Of a DNA stretch of 16,985 nt, positions 1,200 through 12,791 are shown piece by piece. The stretch's first letter is position 1, and each line of letters opens with the position of its first letter. The notes beneath the pieces are model-generated. The model made no database searches, was not told the origin of the DNA, and worked only from the letters and a program-made list of their open reading frames with translations. Source of the DNA: Vulcanimicrobiota bacterium (GTDB lineage Bacteria; Vulcanimicrobiota; Vulcanimicrobiia; Vulcanimicrobiales; Vulcanimicrobiaceae). The stretch is taken from positions 223 through 17,207 of the forward strand of contig PKZK01000159.1 in assembly GCA_003133025.1 (NCBI GenBank), in the 5' to 3' direction. The position numbers were made by a program, and so were the translations under genes.

Positions 1200-1991
1200 A
1201 TGATCGTCGCCTATCAGGGCGAGCCCGGAGCGTTCAGCGAAGACGCCGCGCGCAAGCTGCTCGAGGGCGCCGAGACCCGCGGCTACGGCACGTTCGACGA
1301 GGTATTCTACGCCGCCGTGGCCGGCGAAGTCGACGCGGCGTTGATGCCGGTCGAGAACTCCATCTCGGGCGCCGTGCCCCGGGTCTACGATCTGTTATAC
1401 GCGGAGCCCCGTGCCCGGATCGTGGCCGAAAGCATCTATCGCGTCGAACAGAACCTCATCGGACTCGCGCGCACCGATCCCGCCGCTCTACGCGAGGTGC
1501 GTTCGCATCCGGTGGCGCTCGAACAGTGCCGCGCGTTCTTCGCGCGCCACCCGCACGTGCGCCCGCAGGTCGTCGGCGATACGGCGGGCGCCGTACGCGA
1601 GATCGTCGCTCTGGGCGACCCGGGCGTCGGCGCGATCGCATCGTCGCTGGCCGCGGAGCGTTACGGCGCGACGCTGTTGGAGCGCGGCATTCAAGACGTG
1701 CACGACAACTTCACGCGCTTCTTCTTGATCGAGCGCGATGCGACGCCGCCGCCGCTGCCCACGCGGGCCTGCGTCGCGCTGATCCTACCGCACCGCCCGG
1801 GATCGTTGCGCGACGCGCTCTCGGCCTTCGCCGATGCGGGATTGAATCTGCGCACGCTGGTCTCGCGACCGGCGCTGGACGCGCCGTTCACCTACCGTTT
1901 CTACGTTGAGATCGAACAGGCCGACGCCGCCCGCCTCTCCTCGGCGCTAGGCGAGATCGACGGCGAAGCGCGCATCCTGGGTACGTACTAA
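1200..1991 (+). CDS. pheA: Monofunctional prephenate dehydratase (PDT + ACT domain)
   Basis: Motifs VAYQGEPGAFSE, PVENSISG, SHPVALEQC and NFTRF, followed by an ACT domain (HRPGSL...FADAGLNL..SRP..YRFYVE). No chorismate mutase domain. Confidence 0.95.
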   Translation: MIVAYQGEPGAFSEDAARKLLEGAETRGYGTFDEVFYAAVAGEVDAALMPVENSISGAVPRVYDLLYAEPRARIVAESIYRVEQNLIGLARTDPAALREVRSHPVALEQCRAFFARHPHVRPQVVGDTAGAVREIVALGDPGVGAIASSLAAERYGATLLERGIQDVHDNFTRFFLIERDATPPPLPTRACVALILPHRPGSLRDALSAFADAGLNLRTLVSRPALDAPFTYRFYVEIEQADAARLSSALGEIDGEARILGTY

Positions 1992-2026
1992 CCGTGCCGC
2001 CCGCGCGCGGGCCACGCGCCCGGCGC

Positions 2027-2053
2027 AATCCAAGGGTTTCCGTATACCGTTAG
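2027..2053 (+). promoter_or_regulatory. Putative ECF-sigma promoter, copy 1 (AATCCAA-N14-CGTTAG), upstream of the DUF4331 gene
   Basis: AATCCAA at 2027-2033 and CGTTAG at 2048-2053. The same boxes and spacing recur at 3537-3563, with a close variant at 9183-9207. Confidence 0.7.
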
Positions 2054-2119
2054 GCTGCCAGACGCTGCTCTCACGATAGGCGCATCGATCTCACTAGTTC
2101 CCCCTACAACGAGGTAAAG

Positions 2120-3421
2120 ATGTCGTTTGGAAGGTGGGCCGGCTCGGTCGCAGCCGTTGGCGCGACGAGTTTGGCCGTATTCCTGTACGCCGCGCATCCG
2201 GCGCGAAGCTCCGATCATCAAGACTCCATCGCGGTCGTCAATCGTCCGGGCGCGGACATCACCGACGTCTACGAGTTCCCGGACCCGGCGAATACCAACA
2301 ACGTCGACCTGGTCATGAACATCCACCCGCTCATCCCGGCCGGCGACGGCGGGGAGTATCAACTCGACCCCGGCGTCTTGTATCAGTTCAAGATCGCCCA
2401 CGGTCCGGTCGGCACGCAGAATCCCGAAGACACCGTCCTGCAAGTCGTCGCGAACGGCACGGGCTCGACCCAAACCCTTTCGCTCTACGGGCCGATCACC
2501 CCGAAACTCTCGGGCACGCACTCGGTGCTGAGCGGTCTCTCGAAGGGTACGTTCCCGTTCAATCAGCCGAGCGGCACCACGCTGTCCAACGGCGTCGTCG
2601 CATTTGCGGGTCCGCGCGCGGATCCGTTCTTCTTCGACCTGTTCCAGTTCTTCAAGATCTTGCCGGATCGCTATTACGCAAATCCGCGCACGGGCAACCA
2701 ACTCGGCACCTCGATGCCGACCTTCAACGGCTATGCTTCCGGATCCACCTCGGGTGCGAACGGCACGGGCTATGCCTGCAGCACCGCGGCCTCGACCAAC
2801 GCACTGACCCAGATCAACGGCGGCTTCAACGTGATCTCGATCGTGCTTTCGGTGCCGCGCAACCTGCTCTCTCCGCGCGGCGTCACGCCGATCATCCATA
2901 CGTGGGCGACGGCGAGCTTGCCCACCGGCGAGAAGATCAACGGCCGCGAAGTCTACGTGCAGCAAGAACTGCTCTCGCGCCCCGCGGTGAAAGAACTTTT
3001 CGAAAAGTTCAACCAGCATCAGTACACCAACCAAACGAGCCCCTACGCGGACACCACGATCAAAGCCGCGATCTACAACTTCTCGAATAAGGTCGTCGGC
3101 CGCAGCGAAACGATCTCGCGCGTGCTGCAGAGCATCCTCTACCCCAACGAACTCGCGGCGGACCTCTCGCAGAGCGGCCCCGCAGCCTACTTGGGCGTGG
3201 AGACCGGCGGAGCGACCGGCGGTAAGTTCGGCGGCCGAGGCTTGACCGACGACGTCATCGACATCTCGCTGGGCGCAGTGTTCGGAAACACCATTCCGGC
3301 CCTCACCGGCGTACCCGACGACGGGAAAGAGAATAACTGTCTCACCGACGAGCACGTCACGTCGGGACAAGGCGGAACGCAGACCCAGTCGACGTATCCG
3401 TACCTAGCGCCTCCGCACTAA
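2120..3421 (+). CDS. Secreted DUF4331-family protein (433 aa)
   Basis: GAGGT at 2111-2115. Signal peptide ends ...HPARS. Family motifs recognised: SDHQD, ADITDVYEF, DPGVLYQFKI, FAGPRADPFFFDL, GFNVISIVLSVP, GGRGLTDDVIDISL and C-terminal PYLAPPH. Confidence 0.88.
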   Translation: MSFGRWAGSVAAVGATSLAVFLYAAHPARSSDHQDSIAVVNRPGADITDVYEFPDPANTNNVDLVMNIHPLIPAGDGGEYQLDPGVLYQFKIAHGPVGTQNPEDTVLQVVANGTGSTQTLSLYGPITPKLSGTHSVLSGLSKGTFPFNQPSGTTLSNGVVAFAGPRADPFFFDLFQFFKILPDRYYANPRTGNQLGTSMPTFNGYASGSTSGANGTGYACSTAASTNALTQINGGFNVISIVLSVPRNLLSPRGVTPIIHTWATASLPTGEKINGREVYVQQELLSRPAVKELFEKFNQHQYTNQTSPYADTTIKAAIYNFSNKVVGRSETISRVLQSILYPNELAADLSQSGPAAYLGVETGGATGGKFGGRGLTDDVIDISLGAVFGNTIPALTGVPDDGKENNCLTDEHVTSGQGGTQTQSTYPYLAPPH

Positions 3422-3468
3422 GACCCTCGAGGGCTCCTACGAACCGGCGCGAGCGCGCCGGCCGCGAA

Positions 3469-3508
3469 AGACGCCCGCGAACGATCGTTCGCGGGCGTCT
3501 CTTCTTTC
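3469..3508 (+). terminator. Intrinsic terminator-like hairpin after the DUF4331 gene
   Basis: Perfect 32-bp palindrome AGACGCCCGCGAACGATCGTTCGCGGGCGTCT (3469-3500) followed by the pyrimidine run CTTCTTTC. Smaller hairpins occur at 3424-3433 and 3444-3461. Confidence 0.75.
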
Positions 3509-3536
3509 GACCACCCGGGCCCGAGCGGAGCGCCCA

Positions 3537-3563
3537 AATCCAACCCCAAACGGGGAGCGTTAG
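3537..3563 (+). promoter_or_regulatory. Putative ECF-sigma promoter, copy 2 (AATCCAA-N14-CGTTAG), upstream of the Ni/Co permease operon
   Basis: AATCCAA at 3537-3543 and CGTTAG at 3558-3563. It lies just downstream of the terminator and upstream of the RBS at 3590-3594. Confidence 0.7.
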
Positions 3564-3601
3564 CCCAGTGAACTCTTGAGCCATCCCGAGAGGTCCCGAC
3601 C

Positions 3602-5206
3602 ATCGCACACCTAAAGCGCGGCCTTGCATCCCTGGTGTTTTTGCTCGCCACGCAGGCCGCCGCGCAAGCGCACCCGCTGGGCAACTTCACGATCAACCAT
3701 TTGACGAAGTTGTCGTTCGGAGCCGATCGCGTCGACGTTCGCTACGTGCTCGACATGGCGGAGATTCCCACCTATCAGGAATTGCGAACGGGCGACGACG
3801 CCGGCACTTCCCCCGCGGCCCTGCAACGCTGGGCGCAACGCACGGCCGGACGCTTGCTGCCGCAGCTGCGCCTGAGTGAGGCCGGAACGGCCGTACCGCT
3901 CATCCTCGACGGAGCGTCGGCGCACACTCGTCCCGGCGCGGGCGGCTTACCCACGCTGTATCTGCGCCTCGACGCCCACGGCTCGCTCGCGCCCGCTGCG
4001 ACGGCGCGCGCCCTCTCGTATCGCGACGAAAGTTTTCCCGGACGCCTGGGTTGGCACGACGTCACGGTGGCGCCCGCGACGGAACCGACGCACGAACTGA
4101 CCGCGTATCCCAACGCGCTGCTCGGCTCGCCGCGCGCCGTCACCGGCGTGGACCTCACCGTTCAACCCAGCGGCGCGGCCGCCGTGCGAACCTCGATCGA
4201 TGAAAGTGCGAACGGAAGCGTGCCCGCGTCCGCGCCGCTCGTGCGCTCGAATCAACTCTCCGACATGCTGGCCCACGGCACGAACGATTGGGGCTTCGTC
4301 GCGTTGACGTTCCTGGTGGCGATCGTGCTCGGCGCGCTGCACGCGCTCGAACCGGGGCACGGCAAGACCCTGCTGGCGATCTCGCTCGTCGGCGCGCGTG
4401 CGACCGTCAAGCAGGCCGCGATCCTCGCTTCGAGCCTGACCATCGCGCACACCATCGGCGTCCTCGCCCTGGGCATCGCGATCAACCTGCTCAAAGGTTA
4501 CTTCGTTCCGGAGTCGATCTACCCGTGGATCACGCTGCTTTCGGGCGTCGCGATCGCGATCGTCGGCGCGCGCGCCGTGCAACGTCAACTCCAGGCGCGG
4601 CAACCGCTCGTGCACGTGCATCCGCACCCGCACCCGCGCGCACACGCCCACGATCACGCCCACGTCCACCATCCGCACGGACACGATCACGGTCATGACC
4701 ACGGGCACGGTCACGCGCACGACCACGGCCACGACCACTCGCACGACGACATCGAGCACGCCCGTCTGCACGCGATACCCGGCACCGCACCGCTGACCTT
4801 CGGATCGACGATTTGGGCGGCGATGAGCGGTGCGGTCGCACCATGTCCCGCGGCGCTCGTCGTCCTCTTGGCCGCGATCGCCCTCAACCAAGTGACCTAC
4901 GGCATCTTCGTCATCGTCGCATTCAGCGCCGGACTCGCTGCGACGCTCACGGGTCTGGGCATCGCGGTCGTGCGTTCCGCGGGCTGGCTGCAGAGCCGGC
5001 GCGGCTTCGAGCGCTTCGTCAAATACGGACCACTGGCGTCCGCGGTCGTGATCTCGACGATCGGGGCGGTCTTGGTCGGTCAAGGTTTTGCCCAGGAGGG
5101 CATTCGCGTGTCGCCGCTGGTCGTCAGCGCGATCACCGCGCTGGCCATCGCCGGTTACGCCTTCTCGCACCCCTTCGCGCACCGCCCGATGCAGAGCGCG
5201 GCATGA
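3602..5206 (+). CDS. RcnA-like Ni/Co transporter (NicO/HoxN clan) with an N-terminal periplasmic domain (HPLGNF...) and a His-rich loop
   Basis: RcnA-type motifs LHALEPGHGKT, HTIGV and PCPAA. The loop at 4613-4771 has 24 His in 53 aa. Signal peptide ends AQA|HPLGNFTINH. The start is uncertain: the first canonical codon is GTG 3635, but ATC 3602 follows GAGGT and restores a full signal peptide. Confidence 0.85.
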   Translation: MAHLKRGLASLVFLLATQAAAQAHPLGNFTINHLTKLSFGADRVDVRYVLDMAEIPTYQELRTGDDAGTSPAALQRWAQRTAGRLLPQLRLSEAGTAVPLILDGASAHTRPGAGGLPTLYLRLDAHGSLAPAATARALSYRDESFPGRLGWHDVTVAPATEPTHELTAYPNALLGSPRAVTGVDLTVQPSGAAAVRTSIDESANGSVPASAPLVRSNQLSDMLAHGTNDWGFVALTFLVAIVLGALHALEPGHGKTLLAISLVGARATVKQAAILASSLTIAHTIGVLALGIAINLLKGYFVPESIYPWITLLSGVAIAIVGARAVQRQLQARQPLVHVHPHPHPRAHAHDHAHVHHPHGHDHGHDHGHGHAHDHGHDHSHDDIEHARLHAIPGTAPLTFGSTIWAAMSGAVAPCPAALVVLLAAIALNQVTYGIFVIVAFSAGLAATLTGLGIAVVRSAGWLQSRRGFERFVKYGPLASAVVISTIGAVLVGQGFAQEGIRVSPLVVSAITALAIAGYAFSHPFAHRPMQSAA

Positions 5207-6027
5207 TCGGCGCGGGAGCGTTCGCGGTATTCGCGCTCGGACTGCGCCACGGCGCCGACCCCGACCACCTCGCGGCCATCGATAACCTGACGCGCAACTC
5301 GTTCGACGAGCGTCCCTGGCTCAGCCGCTTCTGCGGCACGCTCTTTGCGGGCGGCCACTCGATCATGGTGCTCGCCATCGCCGCGCTCGTCGGCTTCTTC
5401 GGTTCGCGCTTCGGCGCGCACGGCGCCTTGATCGAGACCATCGGAACCTGGATCAGCATCGTCGTCTTGGTTGCGATCGCGCTGTTGAACCTGCAGCAAT
5501 TGCGCGCCGGCGGTTCGCGACCCGTCGGGATAAAGTCGCGGCTCGTGCCTAAAGCGCTACGCGAAGCGCGCAGCCCGTGGGTCGCAATCCCCGTCGGACT
5601 GCTCTTCGGATTCGGGTTCGAAACGTCGAGCCAGATCGCGACCTACGCCGTGGCCTTCGGCGTCAATTCCGGCGCGTTCGGCGCGCTCTTGGTCGGCGCC
5701 ATGTTCTGTCTGGGCATGATCTGCACCGACACGCTCGATAGCGTGGTCGTGCATCGGCTCGTCTCCGACCGTTCGAGCTTGCGCCCCTCGACGATGCGCA
5801 TCTGGATCTGGTCGGTCACGTTGCTCGCGCTCGCAGTCGCTGCATACGAACTCGCTCAAGTCCTCGGCTGGCAACCGCCGGCGATTATGGGCTACAGTTC
5901 CGACATCTACGCGAGTGCCGCGATCGTTTTGGTGCTCGTCGGGGTATTCGCCTACATAGTATACGCGACTCGTGCCGCAGCGTATGCCGAAGCGCCCGAC
6001 GCAGGCACGATTGCACAGGAGGGGTAA
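5203..6027 (+). CDS. HoxN/HupN/NixA (NiCoT) family high-affinity Ni/Co permease, 274 aa
   Basis: ATG 5203 overlaps the upstream stop (ATGA). NiCoT signature variants GLRHGADPDHLAAIDN, FAGGHS and LLFGFGFETSSQ, plus several TM segments. The ORF-track start at 4813 is a spurious extension. Confidence 0.9.
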   Translation: MIGAGAFAVFALGLRHGADPDHLAAIDNLTRNSFDERPWLSRFCGTLFAGGHSIMVLAIAALVGFFGSRFGAHGALIETIGTWISIVVLVAIALLNLQQLRAGGSRPVGIKSRLVPKALREARSPWVAIPVGLLFGFGFETSSQIATYAVAFGVNSGAFGALLVGAMFCLGMICTDTLDSVVVHRLVSDRSSLRPSTMRIWIWSVTLLALAVAAYELAQVLGWQPPAIMGYSSDIYASAAIVLVLVGVFAYIVYATRAAAYAEAPDAGTIAQEG

Positions 6028-6030
6028 CGC

Positions 6031-6279
6031 ATGATCCATCAGCGCGCAGCCGCACCGGTCGCGATCGCCACCGGGGGCGGCAGCGCCTTCGGCGGACGCG
6101 CGGTCAGCGACGACGTGGTCGACATCTCGCTCGGCGCGCTTTTCGGACACACCCTGGCGGCACCGAAGCTGCAACCCGAAGACAACGAGGAGAACAACTG
6201 TCTGAGCAGCGACAACGTCGCGCAGGCATCTTCTCAAGTCCCGACGGGCTCGTTTCCGTACCTTGCGCAGCCGCACTAA
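6031..6279 (+). CDS. Stand-alone DUF4331 C-terminal fragment (82 aa); either a small protein or an internally deleted paralogue
   Basis: Strong RBS (AGGAGG, ~6017-6022). The segment FGGRAVSDDVVDISLGALFG...ENNCL...FPYLAQPH aligns by eye with the last ~64 aa of 2120-3421 at roughly half identity. Confidence 0.75.
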   Translation: MIHQRAAAPVAIATGGGSAFGGRAVSDDVVDISLGALFGHTLAAPKLQPEDNEENNCLSSDNVAQASSQVPTGSFPYLAQPH

Positions 6280-7591
6280 CCCGGCAATCCTGGCCACGGT
6301 GGCGATCGCGATCATCGCGATCGCCGCCTGGCCGGCCTATATCCGGCGCGACGAGGATGCGGCGCGAGCGGCGGCCTTGCCGACGGCCGCGCCCGTGGTC
6401 GCCGACTATCAGCATCGCGACAAGCTGATCGCCTTTTGGGAACGCGCCGTCGGCGAGAAGCACCGGGGCGACATGCTCAGCCCGCGCGAACTGAGCGGGG
6501 AGTATCTGCAGCGATATCGCGAACGGGGCGACATCGGCGACGTCCTGCGCGCCGAGGCCGCGGCCAAGGCATCGCTCGCGGCGGAACCCCGGGGCAACAT
6601 GGGCGGCGAACTCGGATTGGCCTCGGTCTACCTCACCTTACACCGCTTTCACGACGCTCTCGCGGTAACCCGCGACGTCGAATCGTGGGATACCGGCGAC
6701 CCGTCGATGTACTCCCGCGAAGCCAGCCTCGACATGGAGATCGGCGACTACGCGCGGGCGCAAAAGCGACTCGACGCGGTGCCCGATAAGGATCGGGACG
6801 ACTCGTGGCGGGTCGTCGAATCGCGCTATCTCGAACTGACCGGACACTTGAGCGCCGCGCGGCCGCTCTTGCAAACGGCCGGCGCCTACGTCAACGCCAA
6901 CGTCGACGCGCCCGCGCAGCAGCGCGCTTGGTATTTCTTCCGCGAGGGCGAAATGGCGTTCGAAGCCGGCGACAACGACGAAGCACTGGCCGACGAGCGG
7001 CAGGCCATTGCCATCTTTCCGCATTACGCCGACGGCTTTCGGGTTCTGGCCCGCGTGGAGTGCGCGCTGAAGCAGTGGACCGAATGCCTGCGCGACGCGA
7101 CCACGTCGGCCGACATGGTACCGTATCCGGAGACGCTCGGCTACGAAGCCGACGCGCAGCGCGCGCTGGGACAGGGCGAGGCCGCCGCCGGAACCGACGG
7201 CTTGATCCGTACGGTCGAGCGCATCGGCAACGCCCAGCGGATCTCCGACCGGCTCTTGGCCATCTACTATTCCGAACACGGACTGCACGCCGACGACGCA
7301 TACGCGATCGCCCGGCGCGAATTGAGCGCACGCGACGACATCTTCACCGAAGACACGCTGGCCTGGGCGGCCGCCGCCGACGGTCGCTGGGACGTTGCGC
7401 GCACCGCAATCCGGAAAGCGCTGCGTTTCGATACGGAGAACTCGCTGCTCCAGTATCACGCAGGGATGATCGCCCTACATTTCGGCGATCGCGCCGAGGC
7501 GAAACGCCGGCTCGCGCGCGCGCTCGCGCTCAACGGACAATTTCACCAAGTCTACGCCGATCGCGCCCGCGCAACGCTGGCCACGCTCTAA
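6263..7591 (+). CDS. Membrane-anchored or secreted TPR-repeat protein of the type usually found next to DUF4331 genes
   Basis: TTG start overlapping the previous gene. N-terminal hydrophobic helix (ILATVAIAIIAIAAW), TPR-like helices, and motifs YLQRYRERGD, LTLHRFHDAL, RDDIFTEDTLAWA and LQYHAGMI. Confidence 0.85.
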   Translation: MRSRTNPAILATVAIAIIAIAAWPAYIRRDEDAARAAALPTAAPVVADYQHRDKLIAFWERAVGEKHRGDMLSPRELSGEYLQRYRERGDIGDVLRAEAAAKASLAAEPRGNMGGELGLASVYLTLHRFHDALAVTRDVESWDTGDPSMYSREASLDMEIGDYARAQKRLDAVPDKDRDDSWRVVESRYLELTGHLSAARPLLQTAGAYVNANVDAPAQQRAWYFFREGEMAFEAGDNDEALADERQAIAIFPHYADGFRVLARVECALKQWTECLRDATTSADMVPYPETLGYEADAQRALGQGEAAAGTDGLIRTVERIGNAQRISDRLLAIYYSEHGLHADDAYAIARRELSARDDIFTEDTLAWAAAADGRWDVARTAIRKALRFDTENSLLQYHAGMIALHFGDRAEAKRRLARALALNGQFHQVYADRARATLATL

Positions 7592-8943
7592 CGTTCGAGG
7601 GGCTGGCCGGCGTCCTCGACGCACTGCAAGCCGGCATCCTGTTGGATGCTGTCGTGAGCGCGGCGCGTGTAGACGCGCAATTCGGCGATGTCGCGCGGGA
7701 AGATGAGGCCCAGCGACCAGTCGAATGCGACGCGAAACTGACGATCCCGACCGGGCAGGCGCAGGAGATAATACGTTCGCCAGAGCGCCCAGGCCCAAAA
7801 GCCGGTCAGCAGCCATTTTCCGCGAATTCCCGCGACGCCGCGCCGACCGCCGAGCGAAGCCATCATGCCCATGGCCTCGTATGCGAACGTTTTGGTCGGT
7901 TCTCCGCGCAACGTGGCGACGATGTTCGCCGCAAGCACCGGACCTTCGCGAATGGCGTGTTGCGCCGTCGCCGGATACGTGCCGCCCTTGGGATGCGCGA
8001 TCGAAGCACAGTCGCCGATGGCCCACACGCCGGGATAGCCGGGCACCGACAGATCCGGCGCGACGCCGATCGATCCACCGCGGCCGGTTGCGATCGGCAG
8101 TCCGGTCACGAGCGGGGAGGGCTTGACGCCCGCGCTCCACACGATCGTGGCCGTGCGCAGCGTGCGTCCGTCCTTGAGACGCAGACCCTCGTCGTCGGCG
8201 CCCGCAACGAGCGCCTCCAGCCACACCCGCACGCCGCGCCGTTCCAGCGCGCGCGCACTGTATTCGCCCATCCCGGCCTGCAACTCGGGCAGCAACTTTT
8301 TCCCGCCTTCGATCAGGTAGATTTCGACCTCGCTCGGCGAGACGCGCGGATAGAAGCGCAGAATGCTCTTGAAGAAGTCGACCATTTCGCCCGCCGCTTC
8401 CACGCCCGTAAAACCGCCGCCGACGAAGACGAAGGTCAGCAGTCGCTTTCGCTGCACCGGGTCGAGCGCGTCGTCGGCACGCTCGAGCATGGCGATCGCG
8501 TGGTTGCGCAGACGTTCCGCGTCTTCGAGCGTCTTGAGCGGCAGCGAACGTTCGGCGATGCCGGGCAAGTTGAACGTCGAGGTCACCGAGCCGACGGCGA
8601 AGACGAGCTGATCGTAGTCCTCGGTCCGCCGTGCGTCGTTGAGGATCGAGACCAACTCGACGGTACGAGCCTGCAGGTCGATCGAACGGATGTCGGCGAG
8701 GATGAAATGCGAGCGGCGGAGCTGCGCGCGCACCGGCGTCACCACGTGCCGCGTCTCGAGATTGCCGGAGGAAACTTCCGGCAACATCGGCGTGAATAAC
8801 GAGAAATTGTCGCGGCTCACGATCGTGATCTCGGCCTCGTCCGGCCGCAGCAGACGCTCGAGTTCGCGAGCAGTCTTCATCCCGCCGAAACCGCCGCCGA
8901 GGATCAGAATGCGGCGCTTCGCCGCGGATCCGTTTTGGCTCAT
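7588..8943 (-). CDS. ndh: Type II NADH:quinone oxidoreductase (NDH-2), 451 aa
   Basis: ILILGGGFGG (FAD), FTPMLPEVSSG, VFVGGGFTGVE (NADH), WSAGV, WAIGDCA, ATAQHA and a C-terminal amphipathic region (AWALWRTYYL). Start placed at ATG 8943 (MSQNG...), which overlaps the stop of an upstream small ORF. Confidence 0.93.
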   Translation of the reverse strand: MSQNGSAAKRRILILGGGFGGMKTARELERLLRPDEAEITIVSRDNFSLFTPMLPEVSSGNLETRHVVTPVRAQLRRSHFILADIRSIDLQARTVELVSILNDARRTEDYDQLVFAVGSVTSTFNLPGIAERSLPLKTLEDAERLRNHAIAMLERADDALDPVQRKRLLTFVFVGGGFTGVEAAGEMVDFFKSILRFYPRVSPSEVEIYLIEGGKKLLPELQAGMGEYSARALERRGVRVWLEALVAGADDEGLRLKDGRTLRTATIVWSAGVKPSPLVTGLPIATGRGGSIGVAPDLSVPGYPGVWAIGDCASIAHPKGGTYPATAQHAIREGPVLAANIVATLRGEPTKTFAYEAMGMMASLGGRRGVAGIRGKWLLTGFWAWALWRTYYLLRLPGRDRQFRVAFDWSLGLIFPRDIAELRVYTRRAHDSIQQDAGLQCVEDAGQPLER

Positions 8944-9074
8944 CGCGGCCGGCCGAACCAATCGATCCACGGGTGCCAGACGAGCAAAGCCCAGGCGACG
9001 AACAGCAGCGCGAGGGCCAGCCACAGGCCCGCGGCTATCAGTTTGCTCCGGTTTCCGCTCGGCGGCGCGCTCAG
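8940..9074 (-). CDS. Small single-pass membrane protein (~44 aa) coupled to ndh
   Basis: Sequence (M)SAPPSGNRSKLIAAGLWLALALLFVAWALLVWHPWIDWFGRPR forms a clean TM helix. Its TGA overlaps the ndh ATG (ATGA). GGAG lies 8 nt upstream of an in-frame CTG at 9074; the start is uncertain. Confidence 0.6.
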   Translation of the reverse strand: MSAPPSGNRSKLIAAGLWLALALLFVAWALLVWHPWIDWFGRPR

Positions 9075-9182
9075 CGACGGGACTCCGTGGCAGTCATCGC
9101 GGCTGGCTTCGTGACGTCGGCAGTGGTTGTCCCGTCGCGCACCGTCTTTTTGTAGACGCTGTAAACAAGTTTCGCGAATTCC

Positions 9183-9207
9183 ATCCAAATGCGGCATGCT
9201 TGCGTCA
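9183..9207 (+). promoter_or_regulatory. Putative ECF-sigma promoter, copy 3 (ATCCAA-N14-CGTCA), upstream of the TonB-dependent receptor
   Basis: CCATCCAA at 9181-9188 and CGTCA at 9203-9207, with the same spacing as copies 1 and 2. RBS GGAGGT at 9231-9236. Confidence 0.62.
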
Positions 9208-9240
9208 TCCCTGCGAACCCGCAATCGCCCGGAGGTCGCC

Positions 9241-11616
9241 ATGTTCGCCGTCGCGGTCCTGATGCTCGTCGTGGCCGCGGCCTCTCCGGCGAGTTCGCCC
9301 TCCCCGAGCGCCTGTGCGACGTCCGCACCGCAACCGTCGGCCGCATCACCCGCGCCTTGCCCGAGCGCGAGACCGCTGAGGGAGATCGGCAAGGTGCAGG
9401 CGACCGGCCGGAACGCCAACCTCGTCGGCACGGCGGCCGCGGCCTCCGAAGGCACGATCGGCATCGAGCAGATCACCACGCGGCCGATCTTGCGCCCCGG
9501 CGAATTGCTCGAAGAGATTCCCGGTCTCGTCATCAGCCAGCACAGCGGCGAGGGCAAGGCGAATCAATACTATCTGCGCGGCTTTCAGCTCGATCACGGC
9601 ACCGATTTGGAAAGCACCGTCGACGGCATCCCGATCAACATGGTCAGCCACGCCCACGGCCAGGGCTACACCGACATCAACTGGTTGATGCCCGAGCTGG
9701 TGAGCTACGTCGAGTTCAAGAAGGGCACGTACTACGCCGATCAGGGAGATTTCTCCACCGCAGGCGCCTACAATCTCTACTTCCGCGACACCATTCCGGC
9801 GGTGACTTCCTTCGGCATCGGCGACTTCGGGTACGACCGTTTCTTCACCGCGGCTTCGCCGCAGGTCGGCATCGGACACTTGCTTTACGGCATCGAGATC
9901 TACCACGACAACGGTACCTTCGCGAAGCCGGACGAATACCATAAACTCAACGGCGTTCTTCGTTACACGATCGACAAGGGCAAGAATAACTTTGCCGTAA
10001 CGGGCTTCGCCTACAACGGTGCCTTCGATTCCACCGATCAGATTCCGCAACGTCTCGTGGATGCCGGGTTGCTCAGCCCGTTCGGATACATCGACCCGAG
10101 CGACGGCGGGAACACGACCCGCTACGCCCTCTCGGCGCAGTACCAGCACCAGGATCCCAACGGCGTCACCAAGTTCAACGCCTACGGCGTCGACTATTTC
10201 CTCGACCTCTTTTCCGACTTTACCTATTACTTGTATGACGGCAACAACTACTATAACGAAACGGCAAATCCGATCACCTGCAACGCGGCTTTCACGACCT
10301 GCACGCCCAACGCTCCCGGAGCGCAGCGCGCGCCGAACTACTCGTCGTACTGTCCGGCATACACCGCGCCGAAGAACGCTCCGCCCGATTCGATCGCGCC
10401 CGCACCGTACGACTTTCAGTGCGGTGACCAACGCGAACAGGAGGACAAACGCTTCATCTCGGGGTTCGACCTCTCTCGATCGTTCCTGACGCCGGGTTCT
10501 GCGACGACGATCGGAGCCGATACGCGCAACGACAACATCTCGACGCTCGGGCTCTTCCTGGTGCAGAACCGCGTCCGCCTGCCCGGCGGCACGTTGAGCG
10601 ACGACCACGCGGTCGAGCGAGGTTCGGACATCTACGTCAAGTCCGATATCCGCTTGAACAAATTGCGCCTCGATCCCGGCATCCGCGCCGACTACTACAC
10701 GTTCAGCGATGCGGCATACCTTCCGCACAACAGCGGCGCCGGGTCGGCGGCCATGGTGAGCCCAAAGATGAACGTCGCCTATGCCTTCAATCCGAACAGC
10801 GAGTTCTATCTCGACTACGGCAGTAGCTTCCACTCCAACGACGTACGCGGCGTCACCTACGTAGACGATCCCCAGACCCACGCTACCTTCGATTCCACGG
10901 GCTCGCCGGTGCTGCAGAACCCGTTGCTCAACCGCTCGGTCGGCGAGGAGATCGGCTATCGTTACTCGGCATCGCGGCTGACCAGCACCGTTTCGCTCTG
11001 GGAACTGTACCAGGCCAACGAATTGATCTTCGACGGCGATCACGGCACCACGTCGCTCGGGGGGCCAACGCAGCGCAAGGGCATCGAGCTGACGAATTAC
11101 TACCGGACGACCAGTTGGCTGACGCTCAACGCCGACTTGGCCACCTCAACGGCGCGCTTTCTCGACGACCCGGCGCATCAGGGCACGGGCGTGCCCGAGT
11201 CGCTCAACGGGGTCGTGCAACTGGGCGCGACCGCCGACGAGCCTCACTACGCGGCGAGCCTGATCATGCGCTACTTCGGCCCGCGCACGCTGGATACGCA
11301 GGGCGACGCGAAGTCGCCGCCGTCGACGATCTTCAACACGCAACTGACCGCCAAGTTCAACAAGAACCAGCACTTGTCGCTCGACGTTTTCAACCTGTTC
11401 AACGCGTACGCGGCCGACGTCACGTACTACTACAACTCGTGGCTGCCGTACGACGCGCAGAATCCGGCCAACGCGAACAATCCGCTGATCAATCCGGCGT
11501 TGGGCGCCAACATCGACGGCTCACCCGGCTTCAAAGGCTCGGCCGGAATTCCCGACTATCACTTTCATCCAACGGAGAAGCGCGCCGTGCGCATGACCTA
11601 CGCCACTAAGCTCTGA
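9241..11616 (+). CDS. TonB-dependent outer-membrane receptor, 791 aa, probably for metal or metal-chelate uptake
   Basis: GGAGGT RBS before ATG 9241 and a signal peptide. Plug motifs LLEEIPGLVISQHSGEGKANQYYLRGFQLDHGTD, HAHGQGY and KGTYYADQGDFSTAG. Beta-barrel strands (PGIRADYY, SPKMNVAY, LDVFNLFN) and C-terminal DYHFHPTEKR. The substrate is inferred from context only. Confidence 0.92.
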   Translation: MFAVAVLMLVVAAASPASSPSPSACATSAPQPSAASPAPCPSARPLREIGKVQATGRNANLVGTAAAASEGTIGIEQITTRPILRPGELLEEIPGLVISQHSGEGKANQYYLRGFQLDHGTDLESTVDGIPINMVSHAHGQGYTDINWLMPELVSYVEFKKGTYYADQGDFSTAGAYNLYFRDTIPAVTSFGIGDFGYDRFFTAASPQVGIGHLLYGIEIYHDNGTFAKPDEYHKLNGVLRYTIDKGKNNFAVTGFAYNGAFDSTDQIPQRLVDAGLLSPFGYIDPSDGGNTTRYALSAQYQHQDPNGVTKFNAYGVDYFLDLFSDFTYYLYDGNNYYNETANPITCNAAFTTCTPNAPGAQRAPNYSSYCPAYTAPKNAPPDSIAPAPYDFQCGDQREQEDKRFISGFDLSRSFLTPGSATTIGADTRNDNISTLGLFLVQNRVRLPGGTLSDDHAVERGSDIYVKSDIRLNKLRLDPGIRADYYTFSDAAYLPHNSGAGSAAMVSPKMNVAYAFNPNSEFYLDYGSSFHSNDVRGVTYVDDPQTHATFDSTGSPVLQNPLLNRSVGEEIGYRYSASRLTSTVSLWELYQANELIFDGDHGTTSLGGPTQRKGIELTNYYRTTSWLTLNADLATSTARFLDDPAHQGTGVPESLNGVVQLGATADEPHYAASLIMRYFGPRTLDTQGDAKSPPSTIFNTQLTAKFNKNQHLSLDVFNLFNAYAADVTYYYNSWLPYDAQNPANANNPLINPALGANIDGSPGFKGSAGIPDYHFHPTEKRAVRMTYATKL

Positions 11617-11965
11617 GCGAACCGCTTTCCGCCGTGTCGGCGAACGTGACGGCGATGCCGTCGGCAGCGAGCCAGCGCTCCAGATGGTCGACGTACTGCG
11701 CACCGAACGTATCGAGCAGGCAGCGCCGGTAGAGCCGATATGCCTCGCCCTGGCCCGTGGCGACGTAGTGTTCGAGCGAACGGCGGTGCACGGCCATGTA
11801 GCCGTCGCGCAAGCGTAAACCGCCGTGCACGAGCGACACCAACAGCTCCGTAGCCGAGGCTTCGGGCTTCAGGTCGAGGCGCTGCACGAACCACTCGTCC
11901 AGCGCGCGAGGGAGGCGCACCGAGCGGGTCGGACCGGCCCGCCCGGTGCCCGAAGGACGGCCCAT
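11606..11965 (-). CDS. Hypothetical protein (119 aa) with a ribbon-helix-helix-like N-terminus; candidate regulator
   Basis: ATG start. TRSVRLPRALDEWF...SATELLVSLVHGGL fits the RHH pattern (strand, helix, helix). Natural composition, unlike the overlapping shadow ORFs. Lies 28 bp downstream of the His-rich ORF. Confidence 0.65.
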   Translation of the reverse strand: MGRPSGTGRAGPTRSVRLPRALDEWFVQRLDLKPEASATELLVSLVHGGLRLRDGYMAVHRRSLEHYVATGQGEAYRLYRRCLLDTFGAQYVDHLERWLAADGIAVTFADTAESGSLRA

Positions 11966-11993
11966 GGCCGCCTACCGCGCCGTCGCTCGCGCT

Positions 11994-12218
11994 TTAGTGC
12001 GCGTGATCGTGGTCGTGGTCGTGATCGTGATGATGCTCGTGGTCGTGCTCGTGTCCGGCCTCGTGCGCGTGCGCGTGCTCGTGCTCGCCGTGCTCGTCGT
12101 GGCTGTGCGCGTGGGCGTGTTCGGCGTGTTCGTGGTCGTGCTCGTGGTCGTGATGCTCGTGCTCGTGCGCGTGGGCCGTGCCGTCTTCGTGCGCGTGAGC
12201 GTGGGTGTGCTCGGCCAT
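11994..12218 (-). CDS. Small His/Asp/Glu-rich putative metal-storage protein (74 aa, 33 His)
   Basis: GGAGGT lies 7 nt upstream of ATG 12218. Sequence MAEHTHAHAHEDGTAHAHEHEHHDHEH...DHDHAH, stop TAA 11996-11994. It is in frame with the upstream amidase ORF. Confidence 0.8.
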   Translation of the reverse strand: MAEHTHAHAHEDGTAHAHEHEHHDHEHDHEHAEHAHAHSHDEHGEHEHAHAHEAGHEHDHEHHHDHDHDHDHAH

Positions 12219-12791
12219 GGGGTGTACCTCCGGGAAAGGGGTGCCCGGCGCTTCTGTGCGACGCGCGGCGGAACCCTCAACGAACGCTTCCGCCATTCGG
12301 CTTATCCGGGCGCGGAGTGCGTCGCCCACGCGCTTTGCATCCTCGGGAACGAGCGGCCGAGCGTCGGCTGCGAGGCGCGCGATGTCCCACCGTTGCTCGT
12401 CGCCGGACCCAAAATAGCCGTCTTCGACCGCCGCCTCCGCGTGCGTGCCCACGAACTCCGCCCGGATCGGAATGCGATACCGCGCACAGATCGCCGCGGC
12501 CACGGCGCAGAGCGCGTCGAGCATGTCCTCGCGTAGCGGAAAGGCTCCGAAGTCGTGCGGTGCGGCGCCGGCCATGCCCGCCACCGCGAGACCGCAGGCG
12601 AACGAATTGCGACCCGCAACGTGCGCCGCGTAGCCTTCGTCCGCGGCCGAAAGCGCGCGTGCGTTCGCGCGCAGATCGGCCGTTTCGCAGACGATCGGCA
12701 GGCCGTCTTCATCGAGCGCGACGCAGAAATGATAGGCTGGGAAGACCGAGCGATAGTCTCCCGCCGTCCAGTGCAAAAAGATGCGCCGCAC
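11994..12791 (-). CDS. Amidase_2-type N-acetylmuramoyl-L-alanine amidase-like protein, reading through in frame into the His-rich protein
   Basis: Motifs RIFLHWTAG, YHF, AAHVAGRNS, ICARYRIP, GTHAE and RWD. The domain spans about 12791-12305, and there is no stop until 11994. The start is uncertain (GTG 12791 chosen). Confidence 0.75.
   Translation of the reverse strand: MRRIFLHWTAGDYRSVFPAYHFCVALDEDGLPIVCETADLRANARALSAADEGYAAHVAGRNSFACGLAVAGMAGAAPHDFGAFPLREDMLDALCAVAAAICARYRIPIRAEFVGTHAEAAVEDGYFGSGDEQRWDIARLAADARPLVPEDAKRVGDALRARISRMAEAFVEGSAARRTEAPGTPFPEVHPMAEHTHAHAHEDGTAHAHEHEHHDHEHDHEHAEHAHAHSHDEHGEHEHAHAHEAGHEHDHEHHHDHDHDHDHAH

Follow-up and report, generated by a model that had tools for sequence, protein, structure and literature searches.

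Predicted SigK-type ECF promoters ahead of DUF4331, NicO permease and TonB-dependent receptor genes in a Vulcanimicrobiota bacterium, and a candidate second operator

The window analysed here, a stretch of 16,985 nt from the genome of a Vulcanimicrobiota bacterium (G000), carries three copies of a two-part motif, ahead of a DUF4331 gene, a permease operon and a TonB-dependent receptor (TBDR) gene (Table 1). Which regulator reads these copies, and does it serve this island alone? Our analysis suggests that they are the -35 and -10 boxes of promoters, (C/A)ATCC(G/A)-N15-CGTT, that their reader is quite probably a single SigK-like ECF sigma factor (C138) which activates its own gene, and that the predicted regulon is genome-wide, not local.

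Table 1 Features of the island, with positions in the window.
Feature	Position	Strand	Remark
P1, predicted ECF promoter of DUF4331 gene (-35 ATCC 2028-2031, -10 CGTT 2048-2051)	2027..2053	+	Top-scoring site of the genome, 22.6 bits
Possible degenerate remnant of second operator	2057..2073	+	Weak, 7/14 positions
Full-length DUF4331 protein, predicted signal peptide, predicted mature end S-D-H	2120..3421	+	Pfam PF14224, E 1.6e-39
Strong intrinsic-terminator-like hairpin, 14 pairs	3469..3510	+	
P2, predicted ECF promoter of permease operon	3537..3563	+	19.7 bits
NicO/RcnA-like permease (NicO1), exported N-terminal domain, His-rich loop	3602..5206	+	Pfam NicO
Second NicO-family (HoxN/NixA-like) permease (NicO2)	5203..6027	+	
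82-aa C-terminal DUF4331 remnant (split DUF4331 N/C gene pair there in relatives)	6031..6279	+	
TPR protein, conserved last gene of operon	6263..7591	+	
NDH-2-type oxidoreductase, lineage-specific neighbour	7588..8943	-	
TGTAGAC-GCT-GTAAACA, two GTMKAC-type boxes, 9-bp period, likely operator	9151..9167	.	
P3, predicted ECF promoter of TBDR	9181..9207	+	13.7 bits
TBDR	9241..11616	+	Pfam PF00593 and PF07715
119-aa protein, no Pfam family, ribbon-helix-helix-like N-terminus, candidate binder of second motif	11606..11965	-	
74-aa His-rich peptide (33 His), conserved directly upstream of the preceding gene	11994..12218	-	

The two copies of AATCCAA-N14-CGTTAG reported in the original prediction (P1 and P2) were confirmed, with 13 of 13 box positions identical and unlike spacers, as was the third copy (P3), which reads CCATCCAA-N14-CGTCA. 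All three are indeed intergenic and on the coding strand, and end 66 nt (P1, to the ATG at 2120), 38 nt (P2) and 33 nt (P3, to the ATG at 9241) before a start codon. The P2 distance is that to a non-canonical ATC at 3602, the likely start of NicO1, which stands behind a GAGAGG Shine-Dalgarno sequence; the GTG at 3635 lies 71 nt away. ATCCAA-N14/15-CGT was observed three times in the window against 0.20 expected, a count reached by none of 200 shuffles, and AATCCAA-N14-CGTTA has just two copies in the 3.35 Mb genome, both inside the window. A sigma-70 scan of positions 1900-12400 found no plus-strand sites.

The genome scan by which the prediction was to be checked gave a divided answer. The total count of ATCCAA-N14-CGT was not enriched (29 against 12-27 at other spacers), whereas its intergenic share was (8/29 against 14/122 for seven other spacers, with 12% of the genome intergenic). 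A weight matrix trained on 39 sites from other genomes only (NicO1, DUF4331 and fasciclin genes) ranked site 2028 first in the G000 genome, and among sites of at least 17 bits, 9 of 16 were intergenic at spacer 16 compared with 8 of 53 at other spacers (Fisher’s exact test: p = 0.002). In a held-out test, sites of at least 14 bits stood upstream of 38 of 59 SigK-like sigma loci (the G000 gene and two C207-type loci included) at spacer 16, and of 0-1 of the same 59 at seven other spacers. The C44 secreted-protein family reached the same threshold in 13 of 24 loci, and the ferritin-like genes did so in 6 of 25 (0-1 at other spacers; G000 genes included), while 30 of 39 NicO1 homologues and 29 of 82 DUF4331 loci were preceded by the motif in counts that overlap the training set; all these family-wide counts come from kin genomes that are not independent. 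Genes internal to operons had next to no upstream motif (NicO2 0/42, RskA 0/60, TPR 2/53). The motif, with its fixed 16-nt spacing and its position before genes, is conserved through the whole bacterial family, as the prediction had expected for homologues in relatives. Matrix, spacing, strand, position and conservation together support an ECF-type promoter, namely two boxes at fixed spacing, strand-specific and upstream of genes. The regulon is not ‘local’ as first proposed, since the sigma operon, the ferritin-like gene and the secreted-protein family elsewhere are also headed by the motif. Further matrix sites were found on C112, C155, C169, C186, C36 and C59. A 19.8-bit site in a hydrogenase cluster (C195:8184) was dropped because it lies within a gene.

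The prediction called for a SigK/RskA-like factor encoded elsewhere, and the best candidate is the SigK-like sigma and RskA-type anti-sigma pair at G000:C138:17422-18818. The same motif stands before this sigma operon (17.2 bits in G000), in keeping with the suggested autoregulation. The sigma factor, matched in 136 of the 151 genomes of the family, consists of regions 2 and 4 only and is followed at +1 by an anti-sigma carrying zf-HC2 and RskA_C, the arrangement of the SigK/RskA clade. Its best PDB match is SigK (4NQW, E 4e-28) and its nearest NCBIfam models are PRK12519 and SigK; on the SigK model (NF007228) it scores 129.6 bits, under the cut-off of 226, and is thus SigK-like and not SigK proper. 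In 7 of 20 fetched loci (L205-207, L210-213) the sigma homologue lies within a DUF4331/NicO island, in several cases with motifs back to back, and six of these in-island sequences group among C138-type sequences in a tree.

Could another sigma factor, or several cross-talking ECFs, read the sites? A second RskA-linked sigma (C207:85546-86136), SigK/PRK12519-like, follows a fasciclin gene, a linkage as in the SigK cassette, and the GTCCAA-N14-CGTA before its operon has TCCAA and CGT in common with P1-P3; the available part of one paper also states that ECF11/18/26/37/207 motifs may cross-talk (PMC13492112). This is unlikely, however, in view of a close C207 homologue in just 1 of 150 relatives against a family-wide motif, and of a matrix score of -1.2 bits for the C207 upstream site against 17.2 for that of C138. 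The C207 variant, CGTCCAA-N14-CGTA, is present in both genomes with a close homologue. G000 has 21 matches to sigma-70 region 2 at a completeness of 80%, so the sites could also have a different reader, among these sigmas or missing from the assembly. That the boxes bind a non-sigma transcription factor seems very unlikely: paired boxes separated by some two turns of the helix can serve a dimer, and the starts at P1-P3 are predicted only, but the motif is non-palindromic and strand-specific, keeps a short and constant distance to start codons, fits the ECF18/19 geometry in the published sections available, and in most relatives also stands before the ECF gene. In Cupriavidus metallidurans, according to the same partly available source, well-scoring predicted RpoP (ECF18), RpoO and RpoL promoters have no start directly downstream (PMC13492112).

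The C138 sigma thus being the preferred reader, RskA would keep it membrane-bound until released by some envelope signal, and P1-P3 would then be switched on together with a few envelope genes elsewhere. From P1 the freed sigma would drive a single-gene unit ended by the hairpin, from P2 the NicO1-NicO2-remnant-TPR operon, and from P3 the TBDR gene. A separate P2 would be needed because the hairpin would split the DUF4331 unit from the permease operon. Together these products are predicted to capture trace metal by way of N-terminal His sites (the mature end of NicO1 was predicted as H-P-L-G-N-F by signal-peptide comparison with 40 homologue N-termini), the outer-membrane receptor and the NicO permeases. 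The metal is probably Ni or Co and the direction is predicted to be uptake; the best NCBIfam match of NicO1 is an efflux family (PRK10019; 138 bits, under the cut-off of 195). G000 encodes a NiFe hydrogenase, so nickel supply matters to it. The NDH-2-type gene was not found among the related DUF4331 loci examined. Contigs from RNA libraries (4 of 17 RNA sets, with X1 and X2 apparently one data set) cover the DUF4331 gene (2070-3147 and 2100-3429) and leave the bin 1303-1736 uncovered. Their beginnings at 2070 (X1/X2), 2100 (X3) and 3599 (X7, an adapter-like loose end) fit starts just after P1 and P2; as assembled contigs, which cannot show starts, with edges that differ between studies and no DNA control, they were not counted as evidence.

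The proposed tie of the TBDR to the island held in part: the promoter recurs in 10 of 30 TBDR loci at 11 bits or more, but it is the weakest of the three and the other 20 loci score lower. P1 and P2 might be real and P3 a chance or decayed site, with the TBDR mainly under a second operator, and the low score of P3, its CGTC in place of CGTT, and TBDR loci with TGTA(A/G)AC but no ECF motif would agree with this. We regard it as unlikely, since P3 shares the spacing and position of P1 and P2, a near-identical CCATCCAA-N14-CGTCA precedes the TBDR gene of a relative (G009), and other spacers yield 0-2 of 30 loci.

The operator in question is a pair of GTMKAC-type boxes (GT(A/C)(G/T)AC; 9152-9166), lying 14 nt ahead of the -35 box of P3. 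No other exact double box in the genome is intergenic. The pair is a likely operator of repressor type; it is apparently undescribed and forms the new part of the finding. TGTA(A/G)AC precedes 16 of 30 TonB-receptor genes against 23 of 1169 promoter regions, and in relatives double boxes precede NiCoT and NikM/CbiM genes. G079 and G004 have arrays of the form GTCTAC-N3-GTAGAC. The possible remnant near P1 sits at the offset where close orthologues have GTAGAC-N3-GTCTAC. Counted across the family, the second motif did not exceed its reversed-pattern controls (17 and 19 of 151 genomes), and GTMKAC-N3-GTMKAC was swamped by GTCGAC repeats, so the second motif draws its support from location and not from count. 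Reading the boxes as a 5′ RNA hairpin fails because they lie upstream of the -35 box at TBDR promoters. Also considered, as presumptive alternatives, were an IdeR/DtxR-like site for GTTAGGCT and a site of Fur or GntR type for the second motif. The original contrast of ECF control with a repressor (NikR) does not stand, since this repressor-type motif marks the Ni/Co uptake genes of the family. Searches for the NikR_C domain were negative for G000 (80% complete) and for five of five relatives (93-97% complete). More tentatively still than the sigma circuit, the second regulator may add metal-specific control at the array by P3, confined to uptake genes.

How do these parts compare with known systems? 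ECF control of Ni/Co transport is less unusual than first supposed, as CnrH is an established ECF regulator of such transport in the portion of PMC6851896 at hand. CnrH/CnrYX of C. metallidurans resembles the island in that an ECF sigma controls its own operon along with genes for Ni/Co transport (predicted here). As far as the accessible sources go, however, CnrH (ECF291) has the consensus ATACGC/CCCTCA (PMC13492112 Table 4), which differs from the motif here and places the island outside its regulon, acts with a class II anti-sigma and the sensor CnrX instead of an RskA-type partner, and drives efflux, whereas the targets here look like uptake. Closer in kind is the SigK-RskA, ECF19/ECF18/ECF214 clade, whose accessible descriptions share a sigma with the sigma2 and sigma4 regions only, an RskA_C anti-sigma with a zinc finger encoded behind it, ATC at -35, CG(T) at -10, and fasciclin among the targets of relatives. 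The typical ECF19 target has ATC at -35 and CG at -10 in the available text (PMC7826278), and the motif agrees with the ECF19 pattern, in which ATC may be followed by CG or TG at -10. DUF4331 is a listed conserved neighbour of ECF18s13 and ECF214s1 in the parts available of PMC7509140 and PMC7826278. Differences were also evident from the same partial sources: the C138 sigma has no cysteines and so no SigK-type disulfide switch, ECF18 has CGTA at -10 in place of CGTT and is restricted to Proteobacteria (PMC7826278), Vulcanimicrobiota is absent from the listed ECF19 phyla, and the predicted targets here include NicO permeases and a TBDR. The Ang-1/Ang-2 anglerase-permease fusions, in the main text of PMC12537917, where the word ‘sigma’ is absent, also have an exported His-starting N-terminal domain on a Ni-type permease. 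The counterpart here is AQA/HPLGNF (the slash marking cleavage) on a NicO domain, a likeness by description, and the permease there is HupE/UreJ-2 instead of NicO/RcnA-like. The literature searched did not confirm the CCATCC consensus for M. tuberculosis SigK, gave nothing usable on nickel transport in Eremiobacterota, sigma factors in Vulcanimicrobium or NikR/TBDR regulons, and held no paper with DUF4331 in its main text; one supplement names DUF4331 as an ECF neighbour. S. coelicolor SCO3450 (10.1101/247056) was set aside as ECF01 and unrelated, judging from the part available.

The ECF wiring is ordinary in kind. For a soil phylum that has been little studied, it offers a promoter consensus open to testing and names a sigma/anti-sigma pair, and it would bring DUF4331, an uncharacterised family, into the same regulon as Ni/Co-type permeases and a TonB receptor. 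The second operator could point the way to a new family of metal-sensing repressors. A possible, though doubtful, extension is a two-key Ni/Co uptake switch: the cysteine-less SigK-type sigma would open it, and a ribbon-helix-helix repressor specific to the lineage (11606-11965) would close it via GTMKAC arrays, with the co-encoded 33-His peptide as metal buffer or sensor and DUF4331 as a Ni/Co-acquisition protein. If true, this would be an undescribed NikR substitute with a regulon of TBDR, NiCoT, NikM/CbiM and DUF4331.

The product of 11606-11965 is a predicted candidate for this repressor. NikR, MetJ and Arc are ribbon-helix-helix repressors, and proteins of this fold have a beta-strand followed by two helices and form an intermolecular sheet. 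In likeness to those repressors, there is a quasi-palindromic box array overlapping or flanking Ni/Co uptake promoters, and a small RHH-like gene is linked to the island; in contrast to them, the array has a 9-bp period and the candidate falls into no Pfam family, with C-terminal helices that only weakly resemble a B12-binding-domain cap. The monomer model has helices at 20-32 and 38-70 and no strand, with low pLDDT at 5-14, and none of 50 family members has a Pfam RHH match. The Atlas neighbours RHH_1 (0.89) and RHH_9 (0.88) serve as leads only. Foldseek returned nothing at E <=0.001, with residues 1-48 barely tested by fold searches, and a profile search of PDB sequences gave nothing meaningful. 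The best VIA-align match (residues 55-111) had Z 6.2, in a range below 8 that may reflect a common helical arrangement; 5 of the 50 rows listed were B12-binding or CarH-type domains. The exact double box occurs in 7 of 40 genomes with the RHH-like gene and 0 of 13 without (p = 0.17), and with up to one mismatch in 12 of 40 and 3 of 13, an association that is not significant. G090 (96% complete) has the operator but no RHH-like gene was found, G071 has a single box and lacks the gene, and in G005 the gene is reduced to a 3′ remnant. Across G000 and 32 other loci listed, the His-peptide/RHH unit had no consistent upstream ECF motif or operator, although two other such loci do carry an upstream ECF-like site.

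The motifs P1, P2 and P3 lie where the original prediction had put them, and the window, which belongs to contig C108 of genome G000 (3.35 Mb, 80% complete), contains three matches to ATCCAA-N14/15-CGT against 0.20 expected. Its nearest relatives among named sequences are contigs of Vulcanimicrobiota (Eremiobacterota). By Pfam, the genes behind them are a DUF4331 gene, an operon of NicO-NicO-DUF4331 remnant-TPR and a TonB receptor (TBDR) gene, and a terminator-like hairpin separates the first two units. The enrichment upstream of genes expected from a genome scan appeared in position but not in total number: the bare pattern was no commoner in G000 than at other spacers (29 versus 12-27) but was biased towards intergenic DNA (8/29 versus 14/122), as was (A/C)ATCC(A/G)-N15-CGTT (12/35 versus 18/171), on gene calls from our own codon model. 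We built a weight matrix on 39 sites from relatives, chosen by the spacer-16 pattern (gap between the ATCC and CGTT boxes) with G000 left out. It ranked P1 first in G000, and 9 of the 16 sites scoring at least 17 bits were intergenic, compared with 8 of 53 for other spacers. The P1 spacer contains CCGTATACCG. Several NicO1 promoters (L081, L085, L102 and L106) have this sequence too, in their case immediately behind the -10 box and arranged in a 7-nt repeat pattern.

Features of the window, with matrix scores of the three motifs
Feature	Position	Strand	Remark
P1	2027-2053		22.6 bits
P1 spacer	2033-2054	+	
Hairpin	3469-3500		14 pairs
P2	3537-3563		19.7 bits
NicO1 start	3587-3604	+	GAGAGG, then ATC at 3602
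DUF4331 remnant	6031-6279	+	between NicO2 and TPR
Box array	9152-9166		14 nt upstream of P3 -35 box; sole intergenic exact double box in G000
P3	9181-9207		13.7 bits
RHH-like gene	11606-11965	-	
His-rich peptide gene	11994-12218		minus strand; 33 of 74 residues His

Of the 93 family genomes that were positive, 30 supplied DUF4331 loci, to which 40 GTDB loci and 20 longer regions were added. In these relatives, ATC(C/T)-N16-CGT(T) stands at a near-constant distance upstream of the first gene of each unit. It precedes NicO1 in 30/39 loci and DUF4331 in 29/82, counts that overlap with the 39 training sites, and most of the remaining DUF4331 genes are operon-internal copies. Upstream of internal genes it was found in 0/42 loci for NicO2, 0/60 for RskA and 2/53 for TPR; other spacers gave 0-2 throughout. 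Kin genomes are not independent, so the p-values look stronger than they are. Tallies, training and test sets include genomes flagged as unpublished (G008, G018, G020, G027, G028, G040, G050, G095, G099, G108, G119, G133, G141), and no claim depends solely on these.

Of 21 sigma-70 region-2 matches in G000, two form SigK-like pairs with the two RskA_C matches, on contigs C138 and C207. A SigK/RskA-like ECF factor encoded elsewhere had been proposed to read the motif, and the C138 pair fits this, with AATCTAA-N14-CGTTT (17.2 bits) 68 nt upstream of its sigma gene, but is not SigK proper. The C138 sigma was matched in 136/151 family genomes. When sigma loci kept out of training were scored, 38/59 had the motif upstream at 14 bits or better with spacer 16, against 0-1 with each of seven other spacers; in most loci below this threshold it was visible by eye at 10-14 bits. 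Homologues lie within DUF4331/NicO islands in 7 of the 20 longer regions, which had been picked because they showed sigma-island linkage or held the RHH-like gene. Six of the island-sigma rows group among C138-type sequences in a tree of 41 rows; the placement of L212 and of the L208 row, both on long branches, is unsure. For the C207 sigma, also paired with an RskA_C protein, a single close homologue turned up in 150 relatives, and both copies are preceded by a different variant, CGTCCAA-N14-CGTA; its locus (G000:C207:84972-87230) is a rare second fasciclin-sigma-RskA cassette shared with G014.

The C138 protein has SigK as its nearest PDB match and PRK12519 and SigK as nearest NCBIfam models, under both cut-offs. 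It contains no cysteines, and its partner carries zf-HC2 and RskA_C. The supplementary entries of PMC7826278 give ATC/CG as the ECF19 promoter and TGCATCTT/CGTA as that of ECF18, do not define ECF19 by cysteines, and name DUF4331 as a neighbour of ECF18s13 and ECF214s1. Because of these entries, the below-cut-off likeness and the partner domains, the C138 sigma most likely belongs to an ECF19-related clade and is predicted to act in the SigK-RskA manner.

The regulon is of SigK type, real, well conserved and of an already known kind. It is not local, as first proposed, since the motif also precedes the sigma operon, a ferritin-like gene on C40 (6/25 loci) and a secreted-protein family on C44 (13/24 loci), the last two kept out of training. 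Fasciclin genes of three relatives, part of the training set, carry it as well. The C44 protein (G000:C44:3822-4442; 206 aa, no Pfam family), found in 79/101 family genomes, is a conserved regulon member. ECF control of Ni/Co transport had been called unusual, which is overstated because CnrH is such an ECF factor (PMC6851896). PMC13492112 advises caution: RpoP and related ECFs have predicted promoters without a start directly downstream, and cross-talk among related groups is possible.

The data establish the motif, with its spacing, position and conservation, and the copy ahead of the sigma gene. In the mechanism proposed on this basis, RskA would release the sigma factor upon an envelope signal and the freed sigma would co-induce the three units. 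Metal would be captured via predicted mature N-termini, namely H-P-L-G-N-F in NicO1 (compare anglerases, PMC12537917) and S/A/G-S-D-H in DUF4331, predicted in 50/52 sequences. Repression via the GTMKAC-type array near P3 would be the least certain step.

This array apparently represents an additional, undescribed layer, a putative operator beside the SigK-type regulon. GTAGAC-N3-GTCTAC follows the -10 box by 6-7 nt in close DUF4331 orthologues, and GT(A/C)(G/T)AC lies downstream of 17/66 island promoters versus 0/61 sigma promoters. TGTA(A/G)AC, the top de novo 7-mer upstream of TBDR genes, precedes 16/30 of them (G000 counted) versus 23/1169 promoter regions of G000. The 3-nt spacer is specific: with no more than one mismatch allowed, it was found in 15/53 genomes and any other spacer in 0-4. 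The three spacer-3 matches in genomes without the RHH-like gene are GTCGAC-type, at least two of which look like DUF4331 coding sequence. TCTACNNTGTAGAC occurs at 21 family loci, 13 called intergenic, and ten, in eight genomes, precede TBDR, NiCoT, NikM/CbiM-like or DUF4331 genes; those starting with MHIPDG we take to be NikM/CbiM-like. We consider the operator probably real. In G004, GTCTAC-N3-GTAGAC precedes each of two NikM/CbiM-like genes (L312, L333), one with an AATCC box just downstream. TBDR promoters without the ECF motif (L226, L227, L229, L232, L235, L241, L243) have (A/C)TGAATAC or TTGAATAC in common, in many cases forming the right-hand part of GTRRWC-N3-GAATAC; this may be an operator variant or another promoter type.

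As for the protein bound there, a search of G000 and five relatives found no NikR_C. The RHH-like gene product is a tentative candidate: the gene has matches in 49/150 relatives, is present in 36 of 39 having the TBDR, and occurs in seven of the eight genomes with TCTACNNTGTAGAC before such genes. However, the co-occurrence of boxes and gene falls short of significance (p 0.17), boxes are present in G090 and G071 with the gene not detected, and the RHH fold is only a lead. In a 1.84-billion-protein library, 44 50%-identity representatives matched. The gene usually lies directly behind the His-rich peptide gene, and the two form a conserved unit beside TBDR or NiCoT genes. In the RHH-like protein, the C-terminal helices bear a weak likeness to the cap found in B12-binding domains of the CarH type. 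At L309/L250 (G005:C1:238126-238230), it is reduced to a 3′ remnant directly upstream of the TBDR, with a single TGTAAACA box.

Moss, plant and peat metagenomes yielded RNA-library contigs that agree with the DUF4331 gene over 2070-3147, 2100-3429 and 2351-3390, differing at 0-1 positions, and others that match parts of the permease operon. This indicates presence only, because such libraries can contain DNA. NicO1 probably starts at a non-canonical ATC, since there is an in-frame stop at 3578-3580 and a start at GTG 3635 would cut the signal peptide short; a contig from an RNA run has the same letters there. The DUF4331 remnant is the leftover of a split N/C pair found between NicO2 and TPR in relatives; in G000 its place is taken by a paralogue further upstream, fused and full-length, that has a promoter to itself. 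A second split pair (L024; G000:C233, about 1775-1900) is divergent from a binding-protein gene, presumably ZnuA-like, and has no ECF motif but a near-palindrome that we take to be Zur/Fur-like; DUF4331 may therefore also be under zinc control.
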